A DNA stretch of 64,000 nucleotides. Source: an uncultured Candidatus Saccharibacteria bacterium. Its GTDB lineage: Bacteria; Patescibacteriota; Doudnabacteria; UBA920. Where the stretch lies: contig CAYLIB010000006.1 of assembly GCA_964384035.1 (NCBI GenBank), forward strand, positions 13,336-77,335, in the 5' to 3' direction. A program made the position numbers and the translations under genes. The notes under the pieces are model-generated. The model was not told where the DNA came from and did not search any database. It saw nothing but the letters and a program-made list of their open reading frames with translations. Shown piece by piece: positions 46,553 to 62,126 of this stretch (the stretch's first letter is position 1; each line of letters starts with the position of its first letter).

Positions 46553-48697
46553 ATGCAAACCACTGAAACACAATCTACTCAAGCAGAATACCTAGACCCT
46601 GAAAACCCCGAAGGTGTTGTATTTAATCCTGACGATTTTCACAAGCCAGAAGCTATAAGTCCAGAAAAAACCAGCCAGCAGGAAACTCCCGATCAGATAG
46701 TAAACCTGGCTGGTAATTCTCTTGGTCAGGAGTACTCTATATTACACCTTCCTGATTCTAATTTCAGCGGAAGGTACGACGAAGAAACAGACGACATTCA
46801 CTATGAACACAACAACACTACTCTGAAGACTTTTAATATTGGAGGTAAAGAAGACTATAATACGCTCATTCGAGAACTAATTACAGAAGGAGTTGTTTTT
46901 AGAAAATCTGAAGACGAGAAATACGCAACGGCGTGGGTATACGATTTTAATTCAAAAGAGGTGAGGAGTTATGTGCTCAAAGCAGCGCCAAAACCAAAAT
47001 TTGAATATAGTTTTGGTAACGAGGATGACTACACAGCAAACTCAGAAACGGGCGAAGAGCAAATTACAATAAACCTGACTGAACTATTTAAAACAGAGGA
47101 TTCAAATGCTTTGCAAACAGAACAAAAAGCAGAGAGTTTTTTTTCGGTTGCAAGTCTAGCATCTATATTTACCAATAAAGAAAATGAAACCGCTTCTCCA
47201 CAAGAAACAAGTACAGTAGATACTGTTAAGAATATTTTTATTAATACATCAAGGGTAGAAGCTGAGAAGGAGCCAGAAAAAAATTGGCAAAAACTAATCC
47301 AGATAATTTACGAAGAACCAAAATCCATGGAGGCTACTTCTGCCAGAATAGAAGGACTTGAAGAAGATAAGGCAGTGGTTAAGCAAGAGGTAAGGAAAAC
47401 GATTCTTACGCAGTCTGTTGAACCAAAAGAAGTTGTATTAAGAAGTCCTCGTACTGATTCGTCAGAGAAAGATGTTCCCGTTGAGATAAATCATGTGTAT
47501 CCAGAAATAGTAGAATTTGTACATTCCCAAAAAGTGGAATCTGTACAACCACAAACCCCAGAGTCTTTTGAAACTGTCATAGGAGAAGAGGCAGATGGTA
47601 TAGAGGAAGTAGAAAGCATGGTAAACAAAGAGGAAAGTCATCTTAAAAATGAGGTTATTCAGCAAAGGGCAGATATCCAAACACCAGAAACTTTTGTGGG
47701 TACAATATCAGAACCAGTAATCGAGATAGCTTCAGAAGTACAAGACCCCGTCAATTCCACGAAAGTCTCTCTCAAGGAGGGCCCCTCTATTAATCGGACA
47801 CCGGAACTCAAGGAAGATTTTACAGTGGATATTGTGCACAATTTAAAACAAGAAGTTGTGGAATCCGTCAGAAGAATAGAAAGTACCCAAAGCCAATTAG
47901 TTATTCGTCCCGAGGTGCTTACAGAAGAGATTTCGCAGGGAGATAAATTAGAAGAGTCGGTCAAATTGCCAGATCCAAGAAAAATAGAAGATGTTGTGCT
48001 CAAAAAGGAAGTCCTTAATGCTGTTGTAGTAGACGAAATAGTAGAGCTTAAAACATCAGAGCCGACAGAATTACAAAAAACAGAATTTGAACAACCAACT
48101 GAAACCATCGTACAGCAAGCCTTAGAGCAATCCTTTGAAGAAATGACTATCGCAGAACAAAAGCTTACTGAAAAAGATGAAAAATATACGGTTCTGGAAG
48201 TTCTAGAACAAGAAGTAAAACCCCCAATCGAAGCTTTATCCAAAGATTTAAGTCTTAAAGGTGTTACTAAGGTAATCATTCCGGAAGCCAGTACAACCCT
48301 AAATCAAATAAAGCCAAATCAAATAAAAATAGAGGAGGGCTTAGAAAAGCGAACTGAATCATTACACCCTCTTCAAGTCCACAAAGAAGAAGTTATTGTT
48401 AAGCAAGAAGATCTGTTAAGTAAAAGCAATCAAGATATTAAATCTCCTAAGTCAGAAGGAATTACTCAAGAGATATTTATAGGCAGTACGGTTTCGCTCC
48501 AGGTCGAAGACAAGCCCAAAAAAATACCAGAAGTTAATTTAGCAAAAGAAAAAAAACCCGATGTTTCGAGGACTGTCTATATACAAGAAAATTTCCGAAG
48601 AAGATTTTCAGGGGTGGGGGATGTCCAGCAAGAGTCATTTACCACAGTAAATTCTCCGGTGCTAGACTCAAATCTAGTAGCAGAAGTAAGTTCCTAA
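46553..48697 (+). CDS. hyper-acidic low-complexity (E/V/Q/T-rich) protein, predicted intrinsically disordered
   Basis: 714 aa. No TM helix or signal peptide. Long E/K/V/Q-rich degenerate repeats. First gene after the riboswitch-like leader. Confidence 0.6.
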   Translation: MQTTETQSTQAEYLDPENPEGVVFNPDDFHKPEAISPEKTSQQETPDQIVNLAGNSLGQEYSILHLPDSNFSGRYDEETDDIHYEHNNTTLKTFNIGGKEDYNTLIRELITEGVVFRKSEDEKYATAWVYDFNSKEVRSYVLKAAPKPKFEYSFGNEDDYTANSETGEEQITINLTELFKTEDSNALQTEQKAESFFSVASLASIFTNKENETASPQETSTVDTVKNIFINTSRVEAEKEPEKNWQKLIQIIYEEPKSMEATSARIEGLEEDKAVVKQEVRKTILTQSVEPKEVVLRSPRTDSSEKDVPVEINHVYPEIVEFVHSQKVESVQPQTPESFETVIGEEADGIEEVESMVNKEESHLKNEVIQQRADIQTPETFVGTISEPVIEIASEVQDPVNSTKVSLKEGPSINRTPELKEDFTVDIVHNLKQEVVESVRRIESTQSQLVIRPEVLTEEISQGDKLEESVKLPDPRKIEDVVLKKEVLNAVVVDEIVELKTSEPTELQKTEFEQPTETIVQQALEQSFEEMTIAEQKLTEKDEKYTVLEVLEQEVKPPIEALSKDLSLKGVTKVIIPEASTTLNQIKPNQIKIEEGLEKRTESLHPLQVHKEEVIVKQEDLLSKSNQDIKSPKSEGITQEIFIGSTVSLQVEDKPKKIPEVNLAKEKKPDVSRTVYIQENFRRRFSGVGDVQQESFTTVNSPVLDSNLVAEVSS

Positions 48698-48700
48698 AAA

Positions 48701-50368
48701 ATGATCACAGAGTTCGAAAAATTTACATATTATGACCTAAGGTTAGAAGCCGAAAGTGGACGACTTCCTAAAATTACTGGAAGAGAAGACGAGGTCTCGC
48801 GTTTGCTCAGAATAATTTCCAGTACCCTGGGTAGGCACAGTATTCTTGTTGCCGAAAGTGGGGTAGGGAAGAGTTCTATTATTTTCGGTTTAGCCGAACG
48901 TATTGCTCGTACTGGTTGGAGAAAAGGTTTGCCTGTGGCTATGCTTGAACCAAACTCCGCATCTCGTATTGGTCTGCTGAGAGAGGCAGGTTTAGGTCCG
49001 TATTTAAGAGCATTTGAATCGCTGACGAGGGGGGTAATTGTCCTCGATGGTTTTGGCGAATGGGTTTATGAGCAACCCAACTCTCTTTCAAATTGGAACA
49101 GTCTCATAAAACCCCTTCTAAATCTAGATGAAGTTTCTCTCATACTCGCTATGCAACCCAAAGAGTTAGAGTGGCTCAAGGTTCATAAAAGTCATTTTGT
49201 CGCACGGTTTCAAATTGTGAACATCGATCCTCTCCCTATGAAAGATTCACGAACAGTATTAATAAATACTGCTAAGAGGCTAGAGAATGAAACCCTAAAA
49301 ATAGAGGCAAGCGCTATTGAAGCAGCTTTAAATTTACCCGAAAGATTTAAAAGGTTGGGTCCATTACCTAAGTCAGGTATGGCTCTTTTGGACGAAGCGG
49401 TTACAGAGTTAAGGATTAATCCGCTATCTTTTAAATTTAATAAGGTGAATCATGAAATCATAGAAAGAGTAACAGCAAGTAAACTTCATTTACCCTTAGC
49501 AAAAGTAGCAGCAGAGGATATTGCGCGTATAAAAAGTTTGCCCGAGGTTTTAAAGAAGAGTGTTCTTGGTCAAGATAAGGCTATTTCAGAAATAGCTGGG
49601 TTCATTCAGAGATCCAAGTTAGGTTTAAGAAACCCAGATAGACCCCTGGCATCATTCTTGTTACTAGGACCCTCTGGTGTAGGTAAGACCGAAACAGCTA
49701 AGACTCTATCTGACATAGTTTTCGGTGGTACGGGTTTTCTAAGACTCGATATGTCAGAGTTCGCGGCAGAACATAGTGTAGCGAGGTTAATTGGTTCACC
49801 TCCTGGTTATGTAGGGTATGATGTTGGGGGTCAGTTAACAACTCATCTTGAATCACACCCGCATTCCTTAATACTTTTAGATGAAATAGAGAAAGCTCAT
49901 CCAAAAATTTTCGACATATTCCTTCAGGTTCTAGATGATGGACGCCTAACATCAAGTCAGGGAGTCGTAATAGACGCAACCCAATGTATATTTATAGCCA
50001 CCTCTAACCTAGCAGTGGATGAAATCCTAAAAGTAGAGAATTCGGATACAGCTGAATACTTAAGTACTAATATTATTCCTGAGCTTCAAAAGTTCCTTAG
50101 GACGGAATTCTTGAATCGTTTCGATTCTTTAGTTGTTTTTAAGAAACTAAGCGAAGAATCACTAGTTCAGATTGCCTTAAAGGAAATTACTAAAATGGAA
50201 GATCGGTTTAAGAATAAGGGTATAAAATTTAAAGTCGATCCTGTTGTCTTAAAGTCAGTAGTTGCCTCGCAGTCAGACCCACGTTTTGGGGCTCGTCCAA
50301 TAAAACGTCTAGTAGAGAAAATTTGCGAAACAGCAGTAGTAGATAGTTTATTAAATTCAAATCAATGA
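48701..50368 (+). CDS. Clp/Hsp100-family double-AAA+ protein lacking N- and M-domains, with degenerate D1
   Basis: D1: GESGVGKSS Walker A, but Walker B is VIVLDGFGEW (Glu to Gly). D2 intact: GPSGVGKTE, LILLDEIEKAH, sensor ATSN, GARPIKR. Strong similarity to ClpA/ClpB D2 (SVARLIGSPPGYVGY, QVLDDGRLT). Confidence 0.85.
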   Translation: MITEFEKFTYYDLRLEAESGRLPKITGREDEVSRLLRIISSTLGRHSILVAESGVGKSSIIFGLAERIARTGWRKGLPVAMLEPNSASRIGLLREAGLGPYLRAFESLTRGVIVLDGFGEWVYEQPNSLSNWNSLIKPLLNLDEVSLILAMQPKELEWLKVHKSHFVARFQIVNIDPLPMKDSRTVLINTAKRLENETLKIEASAIEAALNLPERFKRLGPLPKSGMALLDEAVTELRINPLSFKFNKVNHEIIERVTASKLHLPLAKVAAEDIARIKSLPEVLKKSVLGQDKAISEIAGFIQRSKLGLRNPDRPLASFLLLGPSGVGKTETAKTLSDIVFGGTGFLRLDMSEFAAEHSVARLIGSPPGYVGYDVGGQLTTHLESHPHSLILLDEIEKAHPKIFDIFLQVLDDGRLTSSQGVVIDATQCIFIATSNLAVDEILKVENSDTAEYLSTNIIPELQKFLRTEFLNRFDSLVVFKKLSEESLVQIALKEITKMEDRFKNKGIKFKVDPVVLKSVVASQSDPRFGARPIKRLVEKICETAVVDSLLNSNQ

Positions 50369-50595
50369 AGATTCAAGAGCAAATAGAGAAAGAGTTCAAA
50401 GAAGCTCTGTTAAACATAAAACCGTATGTAAGTTTAAAGTGGTTACAAAAGGTAGAAGCAAGATTTAAATCTCATAAAGAAGAGCTGGATTTAATAGAAG
50501 CAGGTGAAGAAATACGTAGACATAAGAAATCACAATTCTCAGAGATTCTACCCCCTCAGTATTTTGAGCAAATATTTATGAAAAAAAATGATTGA
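50365..50595 (+). CDS. hypothetical small helical protein
   Basis: 76 aa. Start overlaps the upstream stop (ATGA). Stop overlaps the next gene's start. Confidence 0.5.
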   Translation: MKIQEQIEKEFKEALLNIKPYVSLKWLQKVEARFKSHKEELDLIEAGEEIRRHKKSQFSEILPPQYFEQIFMKKND

Positions 50596-51904
50596 AAAAT
50601 CTGTACTCATCGGAGAAAACGTTTTTAGAAATAATACCACCCCTATTCGCTATAAAGACGCAGACAGGCTTAGGCATATGTATATGGTAGGCAAAACAGG
50701 GTCCGGGAAATCCAGTCTCTTTTTGCAAATGTGCTTACAAGACATATTAGCTTTCAAAGGGGTCTGCTTCATAGACCCCCACGGCGATGCGATTAACTGG
50801 CTTCTTTCAAGAATTCCAAAAGGAAGACTGGAAGACGTTGTGGTTATTAAACCTGGAGATGTAAATTTCCCAGTAGGGCTAAATTTACTAGAAGTCTCCG
50901 CAGGAGAAAATAGTAGTTTTTTGGTGAGTGAACTCATCAATATTTTTTATCGTCTGTTCGACCCAGAAAAAACCGGTATCATAGGTCCCCAATTCGAACA
51001 CTGGCTCAGAAACGGAGCGCTTACAGTAATGGCAGACCCAAACGGAGGGACGCTTTTAGAAATTCCCAAACTCTTTTCCGACAAGAAGTTTGAAAGCTAC
51101 AAAAGACAGTTCATAAAAGATCCGCTCGTTATGGAATTTTGGCAATCCCAGATGTCTAAGACGTCAGATTTTCACCGAAGCGAAATGTTAAATTACTTTA
51201 CTTCAAAGTTTGGCCAGTTTATGGGAGTGGAAACCTGCAGGAACATAGTTGGTCAAACCAACAGCACTATAAATTTTCAGGAAATTATAAATAAAGAAAA
51301 AATATTACTAGTTGACCTAAGCAAAGGCTCACTTGGTGAGCTCACGAGTAAATTTTTAGGCTTAGTACTTCTTGCAAAGCTCCAGTCCGCCGTGCTAAGT
51401 AGAGCACAGATAGGGGAGGGTGAAAGAATTCCCTTTTATTTATACGTAGACGAATTCCAAAATTTTACCACCGACACATTTCTTTCCATGCTGGCCGAGT
51501 CTAGAAAATATGGCCTAGCTGTTCATGTTACCAATCAGTATATTACCCAGTTACCCGAAGCTGTCCGCAAGGCAGTTCTAGCTAGCGTGGGTACGACTCT
51601 CTCTTTCCAAGTCGGTGCCGAGGATGCGGAGATTCTTTTACCGGAATTTTCACCTTTCTCGCTAGAAGACCTAACCAACTTACCAGCAAGAAATTTTCTA
51701 CTAAGACTAATGGTGGACGGTAGGACCACAGAAGCTTTCTCCGGCCAGACCATTAGCCACGACACCCTGCTTTCAAAGCATCTTGCTTTCAGTGAAGAAG
51801 AAACCGTCCCACAAGAACTAGTTCTAGAAGCATCAAGATTAATGCACTCCACTCCTGTAGCCTTGGTGCAAAAACAAATCCTCTCCCGTCTAGGTATAAA
51901 TTAG
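50588..51904 (+). CDS. AAA_10/DUF87-type P-loop ATPase (TraG/VirD4/HerA-FtsK superfamily)
   Basis: Walker A MVGKTGSGKSS followed by FIDPHGD. Walker B-like FYLYVDEFQNF with RKYGLAVHVTNQYITQL (TraG-D_C-like block). No TM segment. Confidence 0.75.
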   Translation: MIEKSVLIGENVFRNNTTPIRYKDADRLRHMYMVGKTGSGKSSLFLQMCLQDILAFKGVCFIDPHGDAINWLLSRIPKGRLEDVVVIKPGDVNFPVGLNLLEVSAGENSSFLVSELINIFYRLFDPEKTGIIGPQFEHWLRNGALTVMADPNGGTLLEIPKLFSDKKFESYKRQFIKDPLVMEFWQSQMSKTSDFHRSEMLNYFTSKFGQFMGVETCRNIVGQTNSTINFQEIINKEKILLVDLSKGSLGELTSKFLGLVLLAKLQSAVLSRAQIGEGERIPFYLYVDEFQNFTTDTFLSMLAESRKYGLAVHVTNQYITQLPEAVRKAVLASVGTTLSFQVGAEDAEILLPEFSPFSLEDLTNLPARNFLLRLMVDGRTTEAFSGQTISHDTLLSKHLAFSEEETVPQELVLEASRLMHSTPVALVQKQILSRLGIN

Positions 51905-51957: not shown

Positions 51958-52128
51958 ATGGGTTTCGATCTATCATGGACTCATGTGGAAAATCAACTTC
52001 TGCGTGAGTTGGTCAAACAATACTTGGGCTATCTATTGCTCGGACTCGTAGGAGTTGTTGTGGGGTTATTACTAGTAACCCTAGTAAAGCTCTGTTTATG
52101 GCTTTATGCTTTCAACTTAATGTGCTAA
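51958..52128 (+). CDS. 56-aa hydrophobic peptide (candidate modified-peptide precursor or small membrane protein), not in ORF track
   Basis: AAGGAGG RBS 6 nt upstream. MGFDLSWTHVENQLLRELVKQYLG followed by Leu/Val/Gly-rich core ending LMC. Own terminator immediately downstream. Confidence 0.5.
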   Translation: MGFDLSWTHVENQLLRELVKQYLGYLLLGLVGVVVGLLLVTLVKLCLWLYAFNLMC

Positions 52129-52147
52129 ACAAAGCACTTTTTTATTT
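52122..52147 (+). terminator. attenuator-like terminator directly after the small peptide gene
   Basis: gtgct-aaacaa-agcac followed by ttttttattt. Overlaps the stop codon. Confidence 0.5.
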
Positions 52148-52215: not shown

Positions 52216-53586
52216 ATGAAGATAGCGCTCATTATGTCGCACGGGAAAGTCCATGGTAAAAACGGAATTTTCCAAAAAGCTCTGCGTTACGCTCCGCTCA
52301 CTCTACCTACACTGGCAGCTCTCGTACCTGAAGAGCTTAAAGCGGAAATAACCATCTATGACGAAGGCGTCGAAGATGTAAGCATAGACAAAATTGATGC
52401 AGACATTGTCGGGCTCTCATGTATAACGGGGATAGCTTACCATGTCTACGAAACCTCTGCTCGGCTAAGACAGCGAGGAATTAAAACCGTAATTGGTGGA
52501 TTGCACGCAACACTCTGTCCGACAGAAGCAATGAATTACGCAGACTGTGTTATAACCGGTTTTGCAGAACGAACGTGGCCACAAGCTTTAAGAGATTTTA
52601 GTAATGGTCAGCTTAAAAGTCGTTACGACCAAGAGCAGCCATTCAAATTCGAAGGTATACCAATACCAAGGCGTGATCTCTTAAAGAAAAACGCCTACAT
52701 CACTATGAATACAATTCAGGCAACCAGAGGGTGCTACCAAAAATGCGACTTCTGTGTGGTGCCCAATGCATGGGGGAGTTTCTGGTCCAGACCCGTTCGC
52801 GAAGTCATCGAAGAAATCGAAAAGTTAGACAAAGGTCCATTTCTGTTTCTCGATCTTTCACCAAACGAAGATCCCGAGTACCTAAAGAAGCTCTACAAAG
52901 AACTCATCCCTTTGAAACGCATTTGGGGTGGTCTTGCGACCATCGAAATCTCACGAGATAAAGAACTTCTGAATCTCGCGAATAAAAGTGGTTGTCGCGG
53001 TCTGCTCATTGGTTTCGAATCAGTAAACCAAGAGACTCTTCGTTTGATGGGTAAAGGCAAGCTTAATGTAGCCGACCAGTACTATGAAGACGTAAAGCGT
53101 CTACACGGCGCAGGTATCGGAATTAATGGTTGTTTTGTTTCGGGGCATGACGGAGATGACGAAAGTTGTTTTGAAAGAACGTTAGAATTCGTGGATCGTG
53201 CAAAAATCGACCTACCTCGATTTTCAATCGTAACGCCTTTTCCAGGGACGGCACTTTATAACAAACTCAAGAGTCAAAATCGTTTGCTAATGGATGGTGT
53301 TTCTGGGTGGCAACATTACAACTCGCAAGAAGTAGTCTTTAAGCCCATTGCCATGACACCCGACCAACTACTCGCAGGTCACCAGTGGCTCTGGCGGGAG
53401 GCATATCGTCTTCCTGTTATAGCCCGTAGGTTCTTAGGTTCACCGGCGCTTCACACCGTAATGGCTTTAAAGCACGTTCTGCCAGCCAATATGGCGTACA
53501 GGTTCTTTGCTGACAAATTACCAGAACTAATGATGACCACCTGCGAAACCCCCTCCACCTCCCTCCCCCTGCTCCTGTCCCAGTAG
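52216..53586 (+). CDS. class B (N-terminal B12-binding domain) radical SAM enzyme, paralog 1
   Basis: B12-binding-like N-domain. CYQKCDFC (Cx3Cx2C). Shared blocks LIGFESVN and TPFPGT with the other two paralogs. Confidence 0.85.
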   Translation: MKIALIMSHGKVHGKNGIFQKALRYAPLTLPTLAALVPEELKAEITIYDEGVEDVSIDKIDADIVGLSCITGIAYHVYETSARLRQRGIKTVIGGLHATLCPTEAMNYADCVITGFAERTWPQALRDFSNGQLKSRYDQEQPFKFEGIPIPRRDLLKKNAYITMNTIQATRGCYQKCDFCVVPNAWGSFWSRPVREVIEEIEKLDKGPFLFLDLSPNEDPEYLKKLYKELIPLKRIWGGLATIEISRDKELLNLANKSGCRGLLIGFESVNQETLRLMGKGKLNVADQYYEDVKRLHGAGIGINGCFVSGHDGDDESCFERTLEFVDRAKIDLPRFSIVTPFPGTALYNKLKSQNRLLMDGVSGWQHYNSQEVVFKPIAMTPDQLLAGHQWLWREAYRLPVIARRFLGSPALHTVMALKHVLPANMAYRFFADKLPELMMTTCETPSTSLPLLLSQ

Positions 53587-53721
53587 TATTGAAATTAAGC
53601 ATAGTGAGGGGTGGCGCGGAGGCGGATCCCTTAAGTAGCGCGCAGTGCATCCGAGCACTACTTAAGGTGCCGCAGTGACAGGACCCCGGTGTATTAGAAA
53701 TGGATGTGAAATGGAGATTAG

Positions 53722-55107
53722 ATGAGAGATTCATTTAAAATAACGCTTATCGTTCCGCACGTTGGTCGTAAAGACCCAACCAACTTAAAAGAGTATGTAA
53801 GAACTTGGCAAATGCCGAGTCTCACTATGCCCATCCTCGCGGGTCTCACCCCAAAAGACGTCGAGATTAAATTCTTCGACGAACGCGTCGAGTTCATAGA
53901 CTTCGAAGACAAGACTGATCTCGTAGCCATCACTGTCGAAACATTCACTGCCAAGCGCGCCTACGAAATTTCTGCAATCTACAAAGCACGCGGCACACCT
54001 GTCGTTATGGGTGGCTACCACGCTATGCTAAAACCCGCCGAAGTTTCGCACTTCACAGACGCGTGCATTATAGGTTTTGCAGAAAGTATCTGGCCACAGG
54101 TAGTTAAAGATGCACGCAGTGGAAAGCTACAATCCGTCTACGAGAGAAGCTCTTCAAGCCCCGTAACTTTCGGTATGCCGGACCGCAGAATTTTAGGTAA
54201 GAAAAATTATTTACCTTTGGTGCTCTCAGAAACCGGCCGCGGTTGTCCGCACTCCTGCGGTTTTTGCAGTATTACCTCTGCAACTAAAGCAACCTACTGG
54301 CCTCGGCCCGTAGACGAAGTAGTAAAAGATTTGGCGGAAGCGAAATCTATCGGCATTGGAAGTGACGTCTTCCTCATAGACGACAACATCGTCGGTAATC
54401 CCCGTTACGCTAAGGAACTTTTTACCGCGTTAAAAGATTTGCGTATCCGCTGGTTCAGTCAGGGTACGCTAACTATGGCGCGCGACAAAGAACTTCTAAA
54501 GCTAATGGCCGAAAGTGGATGTATGGGAGTACTAATTGGCTTCGAGTCTGTAAACGAAAAAACTCTTAAGAGCTTCGGAAAAGATTTTAATATTCCGCTC
54601 TTAAGAGATATGAAAGAATCCGTAAAAAGAATCCACGACTTTGGAATCTGCATTTACGGCACTTACATTTTCGGTTACGACGAAAGCCTGGAAGACATTC
54701 TCGCGACCGCACATTCGGCCGAAGACCTAGAGCTTTTTATGGTCGCCTTCAACCATATGATTCCTTTCCCAGGGACTAGGTTGTTTAAGGAACTAGAGGA
54801 TTCTGGGCAACTTACCGACACCGAGTGGTACCTCGATCCCAGTTATCGTTTTGGCCAAACACCCTTTACACCAAAACTCCTCTCACCTAGAGAACTTCAC
54901 GACGCCTGTATTCAAGCAAGGAAGCATTTCTACCGCTATACAAGTATTCTGAAGCGCAGTAGTAACTGGAAGGGGAACCTAACCACTCCCAGCAAAGCTC
55001 TTCGCTATTTCATAATCAACTACCTCCTTCACCGCGAGGTAGGGGAGAAAGATGGCCTACCCTTAGGTAATCTGCCAGCAAGACCGCAATTACTGGCTCC
55101 CGCGTAG
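53722..55107 (+). CDS. class B radical SAM enzyme, paralog 2
   Basis: GRGCPHSCGFCSI (Cx3Cx2C). N-terminal B12-binding-like domain. LIGFESVNEKTL, IPFPGTRLF. Confidence 0.85.
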   Translation: MRDSFKITLIVPHVGRKDPTNLKEYVRTWQMPSLTMPILAGLTPKDVEIKFFDERVEFIDFEDKTDLVAITVETFTAKRAYEISAIYKARGTPVVMGGYHAMLKPAEVSHFTDACIIGFAESIWPQVVKDARSGKLQSVYERSSSSPVTFGMPDRRILGKKNYLPLVLSETGRGCPHSCGFCSITSATKATYWPRPVDEVVKDLAEAKSIGIGSDVFLIDDNIVGNPRYAKELFTALKDLRIRWFSQGTLTMARDKELLKLMAESGCMGVLIGFESVNEKTLKSFGKDFNIPLLRDMKESVKRIHDFGICIYGTYIFGYDESLEDILATAHSAEDLELFMVAFNHMIPFPGTRLFKELEDSGQLTDTEWYLDPSYRFGQTPFTPKLLSPRELHDACIQARKHFYRYTSILKRSSNWKGNLTTPSKALRYFIINYLLHREVGEKDGLPLGNLPARPQLLAPA

Positions 55108-55131
55108 CCAAAACTACGCGGTTTTTATTTT
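55100..55131 (+). terminator. intrinsic terminator after rSAM paralog 2
   Basis: ccgcgtag-ccaaaa-ctacgcgg followed by tttttatttt. Confidence 0.55.
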
Positions 55132-55180
55132 CCCAAATAATCTATATAATATGTGTCATCGAAATAAGGAGGAAATATTT

Positions 55181-56296
55181 ATGTCCAAATATGCTTTTGA
55201 AATTGCGGATGAATCTCACGAAAGTGGGTTAAGAGAAATTTTGAGACAAACAGAAATGCCTGGTAATATCTCACTCTCATTTAGGAGAGAGCCAAATTTT
55301 TTCATTGCTGAAAAAACCGGCAACATCTCAAGTGATGTAGTGGCTGTTAGGGATCTCGATAAAAATAAGCTGGTAGGAGTAGGTGCAAGATCAATACGAA
55401 AAAACTATATAAGAGGTAAAGCAAGTAACATCGGGTACCTAAGTGCTTTAAGAGGGTTACCTGAAATCTTAGGCGGAACGCTTTTGGTCAGAGGTTTTCG
55501 TTACCTAAAAAATCTTCATAAAAAGGGAGAAGTTCCTTTCTACTACACGACCATTTTAGATGAAAATTCCTGGGCAAAGGAAATGCTCACTAGTAAGCGT
55601 TGCGGACTCCCAGTGTACGAAGATCAGGGTATATTAGTAACGCATATGCTACCTCTATATAAGAGACGTTGGAAGCAAAATAATACTCCAGGATTAAATA
55701 TAGTAAGAGTCGGTAGAGTGCCTTACCTCATTCGGCAGGTGTACGAAGTAGTTAACGAATTCAATCGTTACTATGATTACTCGGCTGTAGTGAGTTTTGA
55801 TTCTCTTAGGTCACCTGAACAGTTTTATCCAGGGTTCTCTACAGAAAATCTATTCGCAGTATTCAGGGACGGTCTCATTACTGCTACGCTCGGAGTGTGG
55901 GATCAATCCAATTTCAAGCAAACCGTAGTAACTGACTACAAGGGGTTCTTGAGTTATTTAGCCCCTTTGTCTAGTTTAGGCTCAAAACTCGGTCTAATGC
56001 CGGAATTGCCGAAGATCGGCGGGTCATTTCCTATTCTCTACGCCTGCTTTGTTACTTTAAAACAGGGATATGAGGCGGATATGGCAGTTTTACTGTCCGA
56101 GGTATTGCGACTATATTCAAATCAAGGTTATTATTATTTGCTTGCTGGGAGTCCAAAAGGCAGTCCTGTTGAAAAAATATTCGAATCACAAGAATCCTTT
56201 AGGATCACCAGTACGCTTTACAGGGTTTACTGGGAAGAAGACGCTATCTTTCTTCCAAAAACTCTGGTTCCATATCCGGAAATTGCAACGCTTTAA
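55181..56296 (+). CDS. hypothetical protein (possible GNAT-like fold, weak)
   Basis: AAGGAGG RBS before ATG 55181 (ORF track 55151). 371 aa, no confident motif. Confidence 0.55.
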   Translation: MSKYAFEIADESHESGLREILRQTEMPGNISLSFRREPNFFIAEKTGNISSDVVAVRDLDKNKLVGVGARSIRKNYIRGKASNIGYLSALRGLPEILGGTLLVRGFRYLKNLHKKGEVPFYYTTILDENSWAKEMLTSKRCGLPVYEDQGILVTHMLPLYKRRWKQNNTPGLNIVRVGRVPYLIRQVYEVVNEFNRYYDYSAVVSFDSLRSPEQFYPGFSTENLFAVFRDGLITATLGVWDQSNFKQTVVTDYKGFLSYLAPLSSLGSKLGLMPELPKIGGSFPILYACFVTLKQGYEADMAVLLSEVLRLYSNQGYYYLLAGSPKGSPVEKIFESQESFRITSTLYRVYWEEDAIFLPKTLVPYPEIATL

Positions 56297-56318
56297 ACTT
56301 AATAGGAGGCTACTGAAA

Positions 56319-57035
56319 ATGGCAATAGAGCATGCACGAGTTCTTACTTCGTCACTCTTGAGGTGCGATAGAAGAAAAATGTTCAGTCTCATGGAAGAGT
56401 GCTATTTGGGTATGAGCTGGGTTGAATTCAATCGGGACCTCGCCGAAAAAGACGAAGTAATGATACTCAGCGAAGAAGGGGAGATAGTTGGATTCTCTAC
56501 ATTGGTCACTTTTGACTTTTTAGTCGGTGAACAAATTTGTACAGCCCTTTTTTCTGGTGATACCGTCGTTAGTAAAGATAAGCGAGTCAATATTGGTTTT
56601 GCAAAGGAAATTGTTTCCTACTTCTATCAGAACATAGACTTGGGAAAAAATACTCCTGTCTATTGGACTCTCATAAGCAAAGGATGGAGAACTTTCAGAA
56701 TTCTGCCTTTTCTCTTCAGAGAGTTCTATCCAAACCCCTTTGCGAAAATTGAGAATTCGAGGCTAAAAGAAGTCAGGGATGCATTCGGAAAACACAAATA
56801 CCCGAAGTACTATAAGGAGAGAACCGGTTTAATCCAGTTTCCTACACCAGTTCAAAGACTTAAACCGCGGTCAGATGAAGCAGAATGCAATAGGGATGAT
56901 CCGTATGCAAAGTTCTTCTTCGAAAAAAACCCTGGATACTTAAACGGAGATGAATTAGTTTGTGTAGCAGAAATAAGTATCGAAAACTTCACCCGCTCCA
57001 CCATTAAACTCTTAGGCGATAAATTGCATAAGTAG
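56319..57035 (+). CDS. hypothetical protein (possible GNAT-like acyltransferase, weak)
   Basis: AGGAGG RBS before ATG 56319. ORF track 56070 is a spurious upstream extension overlapping the previous gene. VMILSEEGEIVGFSTL...VNIGFAKEI pattern is GNAT-like. Confidence 0.5.
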   Translation: MAIEHARVLTSSLLRCDRRKMFSLMEECYLGMSWVEFNRDLAEKDEVMILSEEGEIVGFSTLVTFDFLVGEQICTALFSGDTVVSKDKRVNIGFAKEIVSYFYQNIDLGKNTPVYWTLISKGWRTFRILPFLFREFYPNPFAKIENSRLKEVRDAFGKHKYPKYYKERTGLIQFPTPVQRLKPRSDEAECNRDDPYAKFFFEKNPGYLNGDELVCVAEISIENFTRSTIKLLGDKLHK

Positions 57036-57039
57036 AGAT

Positions 57040-58668
57040 ATGAGAAAAATAACGCACTCCGCTATCTTTGTAAGCTGTTATTCAGCGTACAAATCCTGGG
57101 TAGCTAAAACCGCCTCTGTTGAAAATTCCCAGCAGAGGCTTTTATTTTCTATCCTAAATAAAAACAGAAATACCGTTTTTGGAAAAAAGTTTGGTTTTGA
57201 AAAAATACAGAGCATTAAACACTTCCAAGATCAAGTATTCCCACAAGTTTATGAAGACCTTGAGAGTTATATCAAGCGCATGCTTTCAGGAGAAATAGAA
57301 GTGCTTACCGGCGAGAGGGTGCTTCTCTTTGAGCCCACAAGTGGATCAGTATCTGCCTGCAAATACATACCTTATACAAAAGGTTTGCGACAAGAATTTC
57401 AAGCTGGTATAAAGCCCTGGTTATATCTTCTTTATCGTGACTACCCGTCTATCCGCAGTGGCGTACATTACTGGTCTATAAGTCCAAGAGTAACTAGAGG
57501 GCTCACCCAAGGAGGTATTCCCATTGGCTTCGAGAAAGATACCGAATATTTAGGATTACTCTCGCGTGTATTTCTAGATAGAGTTATGGCTTTACCAGGT
57601 GAGGTCACGCATGTTCCTCACATCGAGAACTTTCGCTACCTAACATTGTTATTCCTGCTATCGCATAAGGATCTGACTTTTATATCCCTATGGAATCCCA
57701 CCTTCTTAAAAATTCTTCTCGAAGCCCTCGTTGACTTTAGAGAAAGTTTCATAGAAGACATAAAGTCAGGTTCGTTAAACCCACCTGTAAAGTTATCAAA
57801 AACTCTTAAGGATTATTTTCTTTGGAAATTAAACTTTTGTCGTAGAAGGTCTGTCGAAGTAGTATCTCTGCTTCGTGAGAATCAAGATCCTTATTCCTTA
57901 GCAGGCGCACTCTGGCCTAAGCTATCCCTGATTAGCTGCTGGTCAGACGCAAATGCAAAGGATCAAGCAATAAAGCTTCAAAGAAAATTTCCTTACACAC
58001 CTTTTCAACCAAAGGGTTTAATTTCTACCGAAAGTTTCGCAACATTCCCATATCCTGGTTTAGAAGGAGGAGTGCTTTCTCTAGGTTCCCATTTTTTCGA
58101 ATTTGAGAAGAATGGAAAATACTTCTTGGCCCATGAGATCAGTCTAGGTGAGACTTACTCGTTAGTTGTTACTACAAGCGGGGGACTATATCGTTACCAA
58201 ACAAAAGACCAAGTTAAAATTACGGGGTTTCATAATCAGTGCCCCTCTATGGTTTTTGTTGGTAAAGAAGATTCCATAGTAGATCTAGTTGGTGAAAAAC
58301 TTTCTGAGGGCTTCCTGGTAAAAGTTATGGATGAATTTTTAAATAAATATTCCATAGAACCAGAATTTTGGATGGTCTCGCCGAACCCCATTGGTAACGG
58401 GTATTGTTTGTTTATCAAATCCACTGAAATTCTTCCCGTGAACCTCGCTCTAGAGATAGACATTAAGCTTCGTGGAAGTTTTCACTATTCTTATGCAAGA
58501 ACTTTGGGACAGCTTGAAGAGTTCAAGGTGGTAGCATTGGATAACAATATCAATCCTTCGAAACTCTATCTTGAAACCTGTACGAAACTAGGACAAAAAT
58601 TAGGAGATATCAAACCCAGAAGGCTTCATCAAAGTAATGTATGGTATAAAGTATTTAGTGCAACCTAA
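57040..58668 (+). CDS. GH3-family (acyl-acid amido synthetase-like) adenylating enzyme
   Basis: N-terminal pattern FGKKFGFEKIQSIKHFQDQVFPQVYEDLESYIKRMLSGEIEVLTGERVLLFEPTSGSVSACKYIPYT matches the bacterial GH3 (PF03321) N-region (FGKKY..I.T...FQ..VP...YED..PYI.R...GE...L......F..SSGTT...K.IP). Confidence 0.6.
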   Translation: MRKITHSAIFVSCYSAYKSWVAKTASVENSQQRLLFSILNKNRNTVFGKKFGFEKIQSIKHFQDQVFPQVYEDLESYIKRMLSGEIEVLTGERVLLFEPTSGSVSACKYIPYTKGLRQEFQAGIKPWLYLLYRDYPSIRSGVHYWSISPRVTRGLTQGGIPIGFEKDTEYLGLLSRVFLDRVMALPGEVTHVPHIENFRYLTLLFLLSHKDLTFISLWNPTFLKILLEALVDFRESFIEDIKSGSLNPPVKLSKTLKDYFLWKLNFCRRRSVEVVSLLRENQDPYSLAGALWPKLSLISCWSDANAKDQAIKLQRKFPYTPFQPKGLISTESFATFPYPGLEGGVLSLGSHFFEFEKNGKYFLAHEISLGETYSLVVTTSGGLYRYQTKDQVKITGFHNQCPSMVFVGKEDSIVDLVGEKLSEGFLVKVMDEFLNKYSIEPEFWMVSPNPIGNGYCLFIKSTEILPVNLALEIDIKLRGSFHYSYARTLGQLEEFKVVALDNNINPSKLYLETCTKLGQKLGDIKPRRLHQSNVWYKVFSAT

Positions 58669-58698
58669 ACTGCAACCAGATTGCAGTTTTTTTTATTT
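58667..58698 (+). terminator. intrinsic terminator after GH3 gene
   Basis: aaactgcaa-ccagat-ttgcagttttttttt. Confidence 0.65.
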
Positions 58699-58745
58699 CT
58701 GGGATAATTAAACCGCTGTCCATAAAAAATCAAATAGGAGGAAAT

Positions 58746-60095
58746 ATGCACGTAACTTTTATCGTTCCGCAAATCGGAATGCCCACTAACAAGAAGTATC
58801 TCAAGTCATGGCAAATGGAACCACTGGCTATAGCTATCCTTGCTGGGCTTACCCCCAAGGACATTCAGGTGTCATTCTTCGACGAACGAATAGAGCCAAT
58901 AGAGTTAAATAACAAAACTGATCTAGTCGCAATAACTTGCGAAACCTACAACGCCAAACGCGCATACGAGATATCTCGCATGTATCACACTAGAGGTATT
59001 CCCGTTGTTTTGGGTGGTTATCACCCAACTCTACTTCCCGAAGAAGCAATGCAGTACGCAAGTACAATTGTTGTGGGTCCTGCCGAAGACTGTTGGGAAA
59101 AAGTTTTAGAAGATGCCCGCAAAGGAGAGCTTAAAAGAGTTTACGCAAGAGATAAGTCTCTTCCGATGCGATTTGGTATCCCAGATAGAAGTATCTTCAA
59201 AAAAAAGTCCTATTTCGGAATTCACTGTGTAGAAACGAGTAGGGGATGCCCTCTCTCTTGCGACTATTGTTCCATTACCGCAGTCAACGGCGGAAATTTC
59301 TGGCGGAAACCCGTAGATCAACTAATCGAAGAAATAAAAAACCTTCGTACAAAAAATGTCTTCTTCATAGACGATAACTTTATCGGGAATATACGTACTG
59401 CTAAAGAAGTTCTAAAAGCGCTTATTCCTCTAAATATTCGCTGGTTCTCTCAGGCTACTATAAACGTAGTCAGAGATAAAGAAATTCTGAGACTTCTCGA
59501 GAAAAGTGGATGTGTGGGTTTATTAATTGGTTTTGAATCTACCAATCCTAATACTCTCATGGGAATGGATAAGCCAGTAAATATTAAAGCAGGAAGTTAT
59601 GGTGATGTTATAGAAAGACTTCATAGAAAAGGTATAAGTATCTATGGGGCATTTATTGTCGGTTACGATAATGACCAAGAAGGAGACTTCGATTCCGCAG
59701 TGGATCTTGCCATAAAAAATAGACTTTTTATGTCGGCCTTCAACCATCTCGTACCCTTTCCCGGCACAAAGCTATACAACAAGCTCGAAAAAGAGGGCAG
59801 GCTTTACTATCCAAAGTGGTGGTTAGATCCAGCATTTCGTTTCGGCGACGCTCCCTTCGAACCCCAAAACTTCACCCCAGCGCAATTAAAAGAAATTAGT
59901 CTGGAAGCTAGGCAGCGTTTCTATGAAATTGGTTCAATCTGGAGGAGGCTTTATAACTGGAGGGTTTACAGAAAGCGTCCCAAGATGCTCTATCCTTATT
60001 TGCTTATGAATTTTTTACTCAAAAACGAAGTTACTAAACGCCAAGGCTTCCCCTTGGGTAAGCACAATACCTACCCCCAACCTCTTTTTAAATAA
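58746..60095 (+). CDS. class B radical SAM enzyme, paralog 3
   Basis: SRGCPLSCDYCSI (Cx3Cx2C). B12-binding-like N-domain. LIGFESTNPNTL, VPFPGTKLY. Confidence 0.85.
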   Translation: MHVTFIVPQIGMPTNKKYLKSWQMEPLAIAILAGLTPKDIQVSFFDERIEPIELNNKTDLVAITCETYNAKRAYEISRMYHTRGIPVVLGGYHPTLLPEEAMQYASTIVVGPAEDCWEKVLEDARKGELKRVYARDKSLPMRFGIPDRSIFKKKSYFGIHCVETSRGCPLSCDYCSITAVNGGNFWRKPVDQLIEEIKNLRTKNVFFIDDNFIGNIRTAKEVLKALIPLNIRWFSQATINVVRDKEILRLLEKSGCVGLLIGFESTNPNTLMGMDKPVNIKAGSYGDVIERLHRKGISIYGAFIVGYDNDQEGDFDSAVDLAIKNRLFMSAFNHLVPFPGTKLYNKLEKEGRLYYPKWWLDPAFRFGDAPFEPQNFTPAQLKEISLEARQRFYEIGSIWRRLYNWRVYRKRPKMLYPYLLMNFLLKNEVTKRQGFPLGKHNTYPQPLFK

Positions 60096-60176
60096 AGGAG
60101 GTTATTTTATTGACTTAATTTATATAGAGTGGTATCTTGTCGTATCCACGACGCTACAATTTTTGGAGGATTAAAT

Positions 60177-60929
60177 ATGTCAGATAAACACGCCGATTTA
60201 CTTGATTTTCTAGCGGAAATCAAGGACGATCCTGAAATGAAAGCACATTTAGCCAACAGAAAACCGACGATAATCTTGGTTGGTCTTTCTGGGAAATCCT
60301 GCCTCGAAGTAATTCAAGCAAACAAGGAAGCAGGCATTCACTCTACCGTTGTTGTTTATAATGACTCTTTGCGTGAAGACTTGGCAAACTCGTTAGGATT
60401 GAAGTCGTTGACTTCGGGGCGAGACAGGGTTAGTGGGGGAGAATTGGTTAAAATCAAGACTTTCCCCGTTACAGAAACTCCTAATTATCAGTGGACGTCC
60501 GAATTAGTAGACCCCGGTGAATTCAGAGTCGCTGGAATTGTATTTGCAATTGCCAAGTATGATCCCGCGAGCCGCTGGGATGATGCAGGCTATTATCTGA
60601 ATCGGGACAAGCCTCAGTTCGAAAGAATACCTGCCTGGTACATCCATCAGGTTTTAGCGGATTCTTTGGGTCTAGCAATAACACTCGTAAACGCCTATTA
60701 CGATGAACTCACAGAAAGTGATAGTTTCATATTAGTAGGCCAAGATAGCAAAGACGAAACAACCCAAATACAATTCGTCACTGATTTCCTAGGTACTGTA
60801 GTTGCCGGCTACTTTGGTGGTCTATTTATGTATTACGGGGCTGATAAAGTTGATGTGCAGAACAACGAAACGGAAGCCCTGCAGTCAATAGAGCACCTAA
60901 GGAAGGCTGTTATTGAATCGAAAAAATAA
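60177..60929 (+). CDS. hypothetical protein with Nif11-like N-terminal segment
   Basis: GGAGG RBS before ATG 60177. ADLLDFLAEIKDDPEMKAHLANRK...EVIQANKEAGIH resembles the Nif11 leader-type domain (LKAFLEKVKxDxxLQEKLKAA...VVAIAKEAGF). Confidence 0.5.
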   Translation: MSDKHADLLDFLAEIKDDPEMKAHLANRKPTIILVGLSGKSCLEVIQANKEAGIHSTVVVYNDSLREDLANSLGLKSLTSGRDRVSGGELVKIKTFPVTETPNYQWTSELVDPGEFRVAGIVFAIAKYDPASRWDDAGYYLNRDKPQFERIPAWYIHQVLADSLGLAITLVNAYYDELTESDSFILVGQDSKDETTQIQFVTDFLGTVVAGYFGGLFMYYGADKVDVQNNETEALQSIEHLRKAVIESKK

Positions 60930-60958
60930 AAGACACAACTATGTGTCTCTTTTTATTT
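60927..60958. terminator. bidirectional terminator (convergent genes)
   Basis: aaaaaataaaagacaca-actat-gtgtctctttttattt. Confidence 0.65.
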
Positions 60959-62126
60959 GCCCGTCATATCTAATACCCACACTTGTCATTTCCTTACGAG
61001 AGACCCCAAATTTTATCGACTTTATAAATAAGTATAAAAAAATATACGGAAGCATAATGGCTGGTAAGGGGTCATTGATTTTAAAGATAACATCCTTACC
61101 GTTTATGAAATCATTTAGCCATAGCTTTAAACCATTAATATTCCTTACTTTTCCGAACAAATAAAAGATCATCATTAACTTTATCTGTGGAAACTTGCTT
61201 GTTTTTTCTATTATTAATCCTTTCTTTCCGGTATAAATAGAGTTAGCAAAAATTTTAGGTTTTTCGAAAAATAAATTAATACCACTTGTAGGTCTTGGAT
61301 TGCATTCAATCGGGTATAATTTACCCATCTCATTTTCTATGAAATCAAAGCCAAAATTCCCGGTTAAATTAAGTTTCTTGCCAATAAGTTCTATAGTACG
61401 AAGTACGTTTTTATTTTCAACGGCACGGTAAAGAAAATGAGCCCCAAATTTTAGATGGTAAGGTGAACTATAAGTTACATGATTTAACATTTCACCATTT
61501 TGAAAACAACTATAAGAACAGAATTCCTTCCCCGCTATAAACTCCTGAACCACCCAGGGATTGTCTGGGCCTATATTCAGACCGGAAACATTGCTTATGG
61601 AATCCACCTTTCTTACATAAGCACCAAATCTAGAATAAACAGGTTTAATAAACAACTCATGAGTAGTACTGCTTAAAACATCTCTCATCTGCCCCACACT
61701 TTCTACAAGAATTGTTTTCGGAGTATTTACACCCAATGATCTCGCATACTCTATAAAAGTAAATTTATTATGTAATAAATTCAAAGTCTCTATTGTAGAA
61801 CAAAATAGCTCGCACCCCAAAGGCAGTCTGTCCTTGAAACTAGCCAAGTAAAAAATCTCTTCACACACAGGCACTATTAGATCAATGTTTTTTTCCTTAA
61901 CTAAGTTGCATATAAACTTTTCATAACCAACTAAATCCGTTGAGGGTGGGGGAGTAGTTATATACTCATAAATATTATTTGAAAAACTAACAAGTGTATT
62001 TTTAATACAGTCAGCACCAAAAACCACATAACCCGCTTCCCTAAAAAGCCTCGTCACCCCCAAAGCCACCGGCGACCTCCCTCCAGTAATCAAAACCCTT
62101 CCCCGTTGCCCAACCCCGAAACTCAT
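60939..62126 (-). CDS. ATP-grasp family ligase
   Basis: N-terminal RVLITGGRSPVALGVTRLFREAGYVV (pre-ATP-grasp Rossmann). Central ATP-grasp-like region (VVQEFIAGKEF, ECNPR). Confidence 0.6.
   Translation of the reverse strand: MSFGVGQRGRVLITGGRSPVALGVTRLFREAGYVVFGADCIKNTLVSFSNNIYEYITTPPPSTDLVGYEKFICNLVKEKNIDLIVPVCEEIFYLASFKDRLPLGCELFCSTIETLNLLHNKFTFIEYARSLGVNTPKTILVESVGQMRDVLSSTTHELFIKPVYSRFGAYVRKVDSISNVSGLNIGPDNPWVVQEFIAGKEFCSYSCFQNGEMLNHVTYSSPYHLKFGAHFLYRAVENKNVLRTIELIGKKLNLTGNFGFDFIENEMGKLYPIECNPRPTSGINLFFEKPKIFANSIYTGKKGLIIEKTSKFPQIKLMMIFYLFGKVRNINGLKLWLNDFINGKDVIFKINDPLPAIMLPYIFLYLFIKSIKFGVSRKEMTSVGIRYDGQIKRDT

Follow-up and report, generated by a model that had tools for sequence, protein, structure and literature searches.

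A short Clp/Hsp100 subfamily of Patescibacteria with a degenerate first AAA+ ring, encoded in a conserved operon with a coupling-protein-like ATPase

In the class-I unfoldase ClpA, the first AAA+ ring (D1) mainly supports assembly, and the second (D2) does most of the unfolding. ClpA, ClpC and ClpX dock onto ClpP through an IGL, VGF or IGF tripeptide located after sensor-1, and a coiled-coil middle domain (M-domain) is needed by ClpB for coupling to DnaK and by ClpC for binding of MecA. There are also Hsp100 or other AAA+ proteins that do not feed a protease and are each tied to one machine, namely Plasmodium HSP101 in the PTEX translocon, ClpV (TssH) in type VI secretion (T6SS), and EccA, which acts with EccC in the type VII secretion system (T7SS); the last system pairs an AAA+ ATPase with an ATPase of the FtsK/HerA superfamily. 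In NSF (D2), PEX1/PEX6 (D1) and p97 (D1), one ring binds nucleotide for assembly without hydrolysing it and the other ring is the motor. Here we describe a short Clp/Hsp100 homologue, and the four-gene operon in which it lies, from a 64,000-nucleotide stretch of Patescibacteria DNA (hereafter the window; GenBank assembly GCA_964384035.1, contig CAYLIB010000006.1, positions 13,336 to 77,335 of the forward strand). We found no publication describing this short Clp subfamily, its linkage to orphan type IV coupling proteins (T4CPs) in the candidate phyla radiation (CPR), or an unfoldase of a patescibacterial type IV secretion system (T4SS).

The open reading frame (ORF) of the short Clp occupies positions 48701..50368 of the + strand, on which all four genes and all motifs given below are located, and encodes 555 amino acids. 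It contains two tandem AAA+ modules, a Clp-type D2 and a ClpB_D2-small lid, which are the features of a class-I Clp/Hsp100. Pfam identifies AAA_2 at residues 314-476 (E 7.9e-51) and ClpB_D2-small at residues 483-553 (E 5.1e-13), while D1 gives only generic P-loop matches. Among proteins of solved structure, the best sequence score is to Thermus thermophilus ClpB (E 3e-86), and HSP101 (6e10 and 6e11) is also among the matches. The protein falls below the NCBIfam equivalog cutoffs for ClpB (TIGR03346; 365.3 versus 1232.1 bits), ClpA (TIGR02639; 355.3 versus 993.15) and ClpV/TssH (TIGR03345; 313.2 versus 884.95). An AlphaFold2 monomer model built on 48 homologues (pLDDT 90.7) superposes in Foldseek on ClpC, ClpB and ClpA protomers across both rings, with query-normalised TM scores (TMq) of 0.81-0.86, so that the double ring supposed in the first-pass annotation is borne out at the level of the monomer. 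The matched protomers come from hexameric cryo-electron microscopy structures, and the short Clp itself is predicted, by homology and by its model, to form hexamers. The ORF is real and of full length, and its identity as a two-ring Hsp100 is well supported. A frameshifted fragment of a longer gene was considered and rejected: the upstream ORF is unrelated and ends 3 nucleotides before the ATG, and the length of ~553 residues is kept in 85 other loci.

The overall organization is that of ClpA without its N-terminal domain. Residues 12-550 are collinear with residues 7-552 of N-domain-deleted ClpA (6uqe), and likewise with ClpA 170-720, residue 6 of the short Clp pairing with ClpA residue 170; the protein therefore begins at the D1 core and has no middle-domain insertion. 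With the N-deleted ClpA structures 6uqe and 1ksf, the TMq is 0.82-0.85. No Pfam match to Clp_N (PF02861) is present in the window Clp, and no M-domain was found, the HMMER alignment to ClpB being split in two and leaving ClpB residues ~396-468 unmatched. The short Clp thus resembles ClpA in having two AAA+ modules and no middle domain and in its D2, where Walker A, Walker B, the GYVGY pore loop, sensor-1, sensor-2 and the Arg finger are all kept. It differs in having neither Clp_N nor the IGL loop and in a D1 that is missing the Glu of Walker B, the Tyr of the pore loop, sensor-1 and the Arg fingers. ClpB/Hsp104 and ClpC give the best sequence and Foldseek matches, and the missing ClpP loop is shared with ClpB; unlike either, the short Clp has neither a coiled-coil M-domain nor an N-domain, and its D1 is degenerate.

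The D1 module (residues 1-245; 48701..49435) is degenerate and fast-evolving. Family-wide counts given here and below refer to the best 120 homologues of the window Clp, all of 529-593 residues, which were aligned to it. The P-loop is retained, as the first-pass annotation had noted, although the string quoted for it, GESGVGKSS, does not occur in the protein: Walker A reads AESGVGKS (residues 51-58; 48851..48874), with Lys57 and Ser58 kept and the first Gly replaced by Ala. Across the family the P-loop G-x-G-K-[TS] is invariant (Gly54, Gly56 and Lys57 in all), and the first position is Gly in 91 homologues, Ala in 23 and Ser in 6. In Walker B (VIVLDG, 49034..49051), Asp116, which binds Mg, is kept and the catalytic Glu is replaced by Gly117. 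This replacement, also claimed previously for the string VIVLDGFGE (residue 112 onward), holds up in the HMMER alignment, which places VIVLD-Gly117 on ILFID-Glu of T. thermophilus ClpB, at the Glu of its IDE, with no shift in register. The corresponding column is D51/N39/G14/S14/E1, and a motif hhhhD-x-F-G is found family-wide. Glu120, which had been foreseen as a possible displaced catalytic residue, was examined as a substitute and ruled out by its unconserved column (R49/E17/S17/Q11/A8).

The degeneration of D1 extends beyond what was noticed initially: the Tyr of its pore loop is gone, as are sensor-1 and the two Arg fingers. The window protein has ASRIG in place of AKYRG in the pore loop, LAMQ in place of GATT at sensor-1, and ARF in place of RRF at the Arg fingers, so that the full set of a catalytically competent D1 (DE, sensor-1 Thr, RR and a KYRGEFE pore loop) is absent. 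The corresponding ClpB elements (KYRGEFEE, GATT and the RRF pair) are unconserved across the 120 homologues, and the Arg-finger position in other family members is mostly L, S, H, F or N; canonical Clp proteins of non-CPR genomes from the same scan retain the DE, pore loop, sensor-1 and Arg fingers. Mean pairwise identity within the family is 38% for D1 versus 65% for the large domain of D2, and the window Clp is 29% and 60% identical to other members in these two regions. Against 1.84 billion representatives, a search with D1 alone matched only 3 sequences at E<=1e-30, and the number rose to 59 at E<=1e-10. D1 thus looks relaxed and D2 constrained, and D1 is predicted from its motifs and model to be incompetent for hydrolysis. 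To judge from the alignment columns, the dead D1 is a defining state of the subfamily and not a one-off decay of the window gene. With its P-loop retained and its hydrolysis residues lost, D1 most likely binds nucleotide and acts as an assembly or scaffold ring, by analogy with NSF D2, PEX1/PEX6 D1 and p97 D1 and with the part that ClpA D1 plays in assembly; NSF, PEX1/PEX6 and p97 differ in belonging to the classic AAA clade, whereas the short Clp belongs to the Clp/Hsp100 clade.

D2 was described in the first-pass annotation as fully intact, and every motif that it cited is present. These are Walker A, GPSGVGKT (residue 323; 49667..49690), invariant in 120/120 homologues; Walker B, LILLDEIE (49868..49891), part of the longer string LILLDEIEKAH at residue 390, with Asp394 and Glu395 also invariant in 120/120; sensor-1, TSN (50000..50008), likewise invariant and found as ATSN at residue 433; and sensor-2, GARPIKR (residue 530; 50288..50308). 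To these can be added the pore loop 1, GYVGY (49805..49819), which pairs with GYVGY of ClpB and whose substrate-gripping Tyr370 is Tyr in 119/120, and the Arg finger Asn472-Arg473 (50114-50119). Overall, Walker A and B, GYVGY, TSN, NRFD and GARP are invariant or nearly so across the homologues, and D2 is probably the sole motor of the short Clp.

No ClpP-docking tripeptide of the form [IVLM]-G-[FLIM] is present in the helix-loop-helix following sensor-1 of the window D2 (residues 437-466, LAVDEILKVENSDTAEYLSTNIIPELQKFL), and a tripeptide of this kind (hydrophobic-G-hydrophobic) occurs at that place in only 3 of the 120 homologues, the other 117 being without it. The three absences proposed for this protein, of Clp_N, the M-domain and the ClpP loop, thus all withstand inspection. 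The short Clp has no interface motif for ClpP, DnaK or adaptors. Because it lacks these elements, it would not partner a protease or act as a disaggregase coupled to DnaK, and together with the states of the D1 and D2 motifs this supports the earlier suggestion of a stand-alone unfoldase or remodeller, distinct from a ClpAP component and from a ClpB-type disaggregase.

The main clue to the function of the short Clp is its conserved four-gene context. In the window, the four genes are arranged head to tail at 46553-48697, 48701-50368, 50365-50595 and 50588-51904, with junctions of +3, -4 and -8 nucleotides, and encode a large acidic protein, the Clp, a small helical protein and an ATPase with the fold of a T4CP. 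The order acidic protein, Clp (~553 residues), small ORF (75-113 residues) and ~426-residue ATPase on one strand is found in 29/29 loci of GTDB Patescibacteria that have a short Clp. In the reverse direction, metagenome contigs were scanned with a profile of the 426-residue ATPase, and in 56/56 loci with at least 2.3 kb of upstream sequence a short Clp of ~553 residues lies immediately upstream; the 3' part of the Clp gene was seen on 14 further, shorter metagenome contigs. The pairing of Clp and T4CP-like ATPase is therefore obligate across the surveyed loci (85/85). The first-pass annotation had noticed the pairing with a TraG/HerA-like ATPase and called it unusual; the pairing is real, but it is the rule in this subfamily and part of a strictly conserved operon. 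The operon suggests an undescribed protein-handling machine.

The wider context of the operon is that of chromosomal housekeeping genes, which in the window include those for PBP1, iPGM, UvrB, a MurE-like Mur ligase, FemAB, RpoB, RpoC, a P-type ATPase, leucyl-tRNA synthetase (LeuRS) and TsaD, and in other loci those for DsbA, DsbB, RNase J, an MFS protein and a response regulator. Neither virB nor relaxase genes occur in the window or in those conserved neighbour families that were scanned. The scanned flanks are also devoid of clpP and show no setting of a mobile element or of defence, and T6SS genes are absent from the window ORFs scanned. Components of a membrane pore, a sheath or a T7SS are likewise not encoded nearby. 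In 8 of the 29 genome loci (L017, L018, L023, L028-L030, L042 and L045), a gene for a ~160-residue PaaX_M (Cas2-like; E 1e-20) protein precedes the acidic gene, ~0.5-3 kb upstream of the Clp; this protein may serve as the operon's own regulator.

The partner ATPase (50588..51904, 438 residues) has the TrwB/VirD4/Cag-beta fold, with a nucleotide-binding domain and an all-alpha domain. Its Walker A motif is GKTGSGKS (residue 35) and its Walker B motif is YVDEF (residue 286). Pfam matches are marginal (TrwB_AAD_bind, 20.7 versus a cutoff of 20.5; TraG-D_C; DUF87), and the match to TrwBdeltaN70 is collinear but weak in sequence (phmmer E 0.086). The AlphaFold2 model (pLDDT 89.8) gives TrwBdeltaN70 as its best Foldseek match (E 1.8e-12, TM score ~0.6), along with Cag-beta (8dol, TMq 0.67), DotL and HerA. 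The family is large, with 2222 matches at 55-65% identity to the window protein, in which Walker A (GKTGxGKS) and Walker B (YVDEF) are invariant. The protein is thus like TrwB, VirD4, Cag-beta and DotL in its domains and intact Walker motifs, but unlike T4CPs it has no transmembrane anchor, does not adjoin virB4, relaxase or T4SS genes, and is always paired with a Clp. Its N-terminus contains no hydrophobic segment, the top KD19 window (1.62) beginning at residue 44, directly past Walker A, and it starts ~24 residues before the point that aligns with TrwB residue 49. The protein also matches the C-terminal half of the 824-position phage-protein profile phrog_5156 (E 6e-42), whose domain arrangement resembles the long T4CP-like proteins of Southlakia epibionticum described below.

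A survey of 2025 reported VirD4-like T4CPs in 2,918 of 3,035 Patescibacteria genomes, yet only 148 of 5,713 are located near virB4; it assigned them no definite role and considered exaptation to other functions possible (PMC12102498). The T4CP-like family described here presumably makes up a major part of these counts.

Between the Clp and the T4CP-like gene lies the gene for the small helical protein (50365..50595, 76 residues), which overlaps the stop codon of the Clp by 4 nucleotides and the following gene by 8 nucleotides. A homologue of 75-113 residues occupies this position in every locus examined and ends in a C-terminal motif ...vLdPqYFEQkF. It has no match in Pfam, NCBIfam, PADLOC or PHROGs.

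The first gene of the operon (46553..48697) encodes a protein of 714 residues with a pI of 4.6 (142 Asp and Glu versus 78 Lys and Arg) and the C-terminus ...NLVAEVSS. The window protein has no match in Pfam, NCBIfam, PADLOC or PHROGs, and neither a transmembrane segment nor a signal peptide was detected in it. An acidic ORF of 490-1020 residues, with 15-29% Asp and Glu, is located directly upstream of the short Clp wherever upstream sequence is present, and in the 29 GTDB loci the upstream protein is 630-970 residues long where complete. These proteins are largely disordered, too divergent to cluster by BLAST, and in most copies unalignable. Their C-termini are nevertheless conserved: 44 of the 68 unique C-termini at the orthologous position end in AA and 54 in A, as compared with 6/650 and 47/650 for a background of 650 other ORFs of the same loci. 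The consensus is LNGITL[KR]IAA-COOH, and typical endings are LKIAA, ELAA and KMAA. Signals of the type hydrophobic-x-A-A-COOH, such as the ssrA tag (...YALAA), are read by the pores of ClpX and ClpA. The tail seen on most of the acidic proteins resembles this type but is encoded in the gene, whereas ssrA is added by tmRNA, and its outcome is probably not degradation, because the adjacent Clp has no ClpP docking. ARAGORN, run so that tmRNA tags could be compared with the AA tail, found no tmRNA in any of the CPR loci examined. The acidic protein is a putative dedicated client of the Clp.

The window Clp is, on the basis of alignment and length, a member of a large undescribed Hsp100 subfamily specific to Patescibacteria, of ~550 residues and reduced to two AAA+ modules. 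The full-length relatives all come from metagenome-assembled genomes (MAGs) of Patescibacteria/CPR (Doudnabacteria, Paceibacterota, Nomurabacteria, Parcubacteria, Falkowbacteria, Wolfebacteria and others), and in the closest species-level genome the Clp is 85% identical. The four-gene module is widespread in Parcubacteria-type and related classes, which does not imply a pan-CPR spread. In Dojkabacteria and WS6, there are longer Clps (734-779 residues) without a T4CP neighbour, two of which have a degenerate D1 Walker B. In these two (L033 9443-11692 and L035 9341-11680; 749-779 residues), F-I/V-E-G replaces the D-E and the Arg fingers are lost; decay of D1 among CPR Clps is therefore not limited to the short subfamily, as these Clps are degenerate without a T4CP-like neighbour. 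One locus (L042 8750-10876) encodes a 708-residue Clp with a low-complexity insert of Gly, Thr and Asn (GGTGNGGTGNGG...) directly past the D1 Walker A, and this Clp still precedes the small protein and the T4CP-like gene. Three contigs with the four-gene module (L013, L014 and L020) are titled "uncultured Gammaproteobacteria bacterium" in NCBI, and labels of "uncultured Candidatus Saccharibacteria" look generic, so that taxonomy labels of the related MAG contigs appear unreliable. Southlakia epibionticum (Saccharimonadia) encodes T4CP-like proteins of 921-1019 residues that do not adjoin its Clp-like genes. Of these, SEML1_0142 (1019 residues) is scored as essential and SEML1_0293 (921 residues) as non-essential in the Tn-seq tables that supplement PMC10633639, and PMC12102498 refers to "the" t4cp homologue of Southlakia, as non-essential.

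The rate at which the module changes in the window lineage also stands out against its genomic background. More than 100 CPR relatives share 78-82% identity with RpoB of the window (23795-27271), which assigns the window to the Patescibacteria without pointing to a class, whereas among the same kind of relatives the Clp is only 40-47% and the T4CP-like protein 56-65% identical. In view of these low identities relative to RpoB, and of the loss of the AA tail from the acidic protein, the whole module is changing at an unusual pace in this lineage.

What we infer about the mechanism of the short Clp module, the reader of the tail and the destination of the client is as follows. The Clp would be a non-proteolytic threading motor driven by D2, dedicated to the co-encoded acidic client and acting with the coupling-protein-like hexamer, a reading to which we give an even chance of being correct. 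The Clp is translationally coupled to its three operon partners. In this scheme, the D1 ring, bound to nucleotide, would hold the hexamer together while the D2 ring alone pulls the substrate. The pore of D2 would grip the C-terminal tail of the acidic protein, and threading or extraction would proceed without degradation. The T4CP-like ring might either receive the polypeptide from the Clp or be itself remodelled, and the small helical protein may be an adaptor or regulator. In function, the nearest parallels are HSP101 with PTEX and ClpV with the T6SS, together with the pairing of an AAA+ and an FtsK-like ATPase in the T7SS. Among the Hsp100 proteins tied to a single machine, HSP101 and ClpV differ in keeping their N-domains and an active D1, and the partner of the short Clp is a soluble protein of T4CP fold.

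A more specific version of this scheme, which we consider possible though improbable, is a translocation pathway specific to Patescibacteria. The D2-only Clp would dock coaxially on the soluble T4CP hexamer, at the place usually taken by ClpP, grip the encoded ssrA-like tail, and feed the polyanionic protein through both rings, for a patescibacterial T4SS, another envelope channel or some other non-degradative fate.

Several observations weigh against the threading motor. (i) The tail could be read by the T4CP-like ATPase or by another protease (FtsH, ClpXP) and not by the Clp. (ii) An intrinsically disordered client is not obviously in need of an unfoldase. (iii) The export route is conjecture, because the operon encodes no membrane component. 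(iv) The AA tail is absent in the window lineage, where the window copy ends in AEVSS and that of the nearest outgroup, L167, in ...LLSVTL. (v) Sequence ties the window copy to the AA-tailed proteins only weakly, with a phmmer E of 7e-5 through L167 (the L167-L142 edge) and hhalign E values of 0.006 and 0.12. Single linkage at E<1e-3 unites 49 of 57 N-terminal regions, the window group being joined by the single L167-L142 edge; a hidden Markov model (HMM) seeded with the window group gained only L089 (E 0.031), and an iterative HMM from an N-terminal seed of the acidic proteins did not spread to further copies. Position, size and composition are stronger arguments than sequence for the equivalence of the window copy to the AA-tailed proteins. 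(vi) No phenotype is available, because the module in its short form is absent from Southlakia, the one genetically studied patescibacterium. (vii) The position of the D1 Walker B Glu is Asp in 51 of the 120 family members. Walker B motifs of the DD type allow slow hydrolysis in DnaA-type AAA+ proteins, and by analogy the Asp at position 117 of these relatives might permit slow hydrolysis by D1.

There are also alternatives to the scheme as a whole. The serious one is that the Clp remodels or recycles the T4CP-like hexamer, in the manner of ClpV on T6SS sheaths or NSF on SNAREs, for example by stripping off the small protein as a CagZ-like inhibitor, with the acidic protein being a T4CP cargo or a DNA-mimic ligand. 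The obligate synteny of Clp, small protein and T4CP-like gene would fit this model, as would the match of the T4CP-like model to Cag-beta in its complex with CagZ, and the acidic protein, by its composition (pI 4.6), could pass for nucleic acid with a translocase of the FtsK/HerA type. In the Cag-beta/CagZ case, the coupling ATPase is under the control of a small helical protein (PMC9886983). On the other hand, it is the acidic protein that carries the ssrA-like AA-COOH tail, which is a classic handle for Clp pores, and the small protein could not be matched to CagZ or any other family; we consider this model unlikely, while taking it seriously. The idea that D1 is still active through a non-canonical residue, which would be Glu120 here and Asp117 in relatives, is less probable still and in our view very unlikely. 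Glu120 is three residues past Gly117 and four past Asp116, relatives often have Asp at position 117, and the P-loop Lys is invariant; against this, neither position 117 (D/N/G/S) nor position 120 behaves as a conserved catalytic residue, and the trans-acting Arg fingers and sensor-1 are lost as well. This concurrent loss also makes D1 catalysis unlikely in the Asp117 relatives.

Two further explanations would deprive the operon of a specialized role in protein handling. If the short Clp simply served these reduced genomes as their housekeeping Hsp100, whether as a chaperone or together with ClpP, its neighbourhood would be a conserved accident; its best sequence matches are indeed ClpB, ClpA and ClpC, and reduced genomes often retain minimal core proteins. 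Such a role is nonetheless rather unlikely, given scores far under the equivalog cutoffs and the missing ClpP tripeptide, M-domain and N-domain. The 85/85 synteny and the overlapping stop and start codons, in lineages whose Clps are ~40% identical, would be unexpected for unrelated genes, and other CPR lineages have separate Clps of canonical length. It is highly improbable, finally, that the four genes serve in anti-phage defence or belong to a mobile element, as a module of the type that combines a HerA-like ATPase with an AAA+ effector. PADLOC does give domain-level matches for the Clp D2 (PDC-M37B, DolB) and the T4CP-like protein (mad8, 6e-13; HerA), and phrog_4871 and phrog_5156 are matched as well, but all of these cover generic ATPase domains only. 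The locus is found amid rpoB/rpoC, leuS, tsaD, a murE-like gene and a PBP gene, or elsewhere near DsbA/B, RNase J and MFS genes, and it is without domains of integrases, nucleases or toxins. T4CP homologues in 2,918 of 3,035 CPR genomes (PMC12102498), presumably of the same family, would also be far above the occurrence of accessory defence systems.

There are additional features in the window around the operon. Directly 3' of the T4CP-like gene is a 56-residue ORF (51958..52128, + strand) with one strong transmembrane helix, which among the loci compared is found only in the window lineage and in the relative whose Clp is 85% identical, and not across the family. It may be a fifth gene specific to this lineage, whose product could tether the module to the membrane. 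The ORF is followed by a terminator-like hairpin (52122-52137); the promoter and terminator scan was otherwise uninformative, and Rfam and tRNA scans of the window found nothing. Farther downstream, the region 52216-62126 contains three radical SAM ORFs (at 52216, 53722 and 58746), two of which match a B12-binding domain, a GH3-family adenylating enzyme (57040-58668), an ATP-grasp protein (60939-62126, - strand) and several ORFs without a family match. The GC content is 0.44-0.46 over 52-56 kb, compared with ~0.39 in the flanks and 0.37-0.40 over 56-62 kb. A possible reading of this region is that of a biosynthetic island lying immediately downstream of the operon. Elsewhere in the window, a LeuRS-like synthetase of 915 residues (35768-38515, - strand) has tRNA-synt_1 and Anticodon_1 together with an unusual insertion, His_Phos_1, at residues 457-612 (E 6.9e-26).

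Much of bacterial diversity belongs to the Patescibacteria, and the machinery by which these ultrasmall episymbionts interact with their hosts is poorly understood. The present findings indicate that one very conserved class of orphan T4CP is never alone: its gene is always co-transcribed with those of a minimal Hsp100 whose D1 is degenerate, of the small helical protein, and of the long acidic protein, usually with an ssrA-like tail. The question of the orphan T4CPs thereby becomes a specific hypothesis in which client, tag, motor and partner ring can each be named. As a natural class-I Hsp100 with a putative single motor, the short Clp would offer a clean system for the role of a D1 ring that binds nucleotide without hydrolysing it, and it may be the first Hsp100 to be coupled to a ring of the FtsK/HerA superfamily instead of a protease. 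If the Clp-T4CP translocation pathway is true, it would account for what the orphan T4CPs, so abundant in these episymbionts, do.

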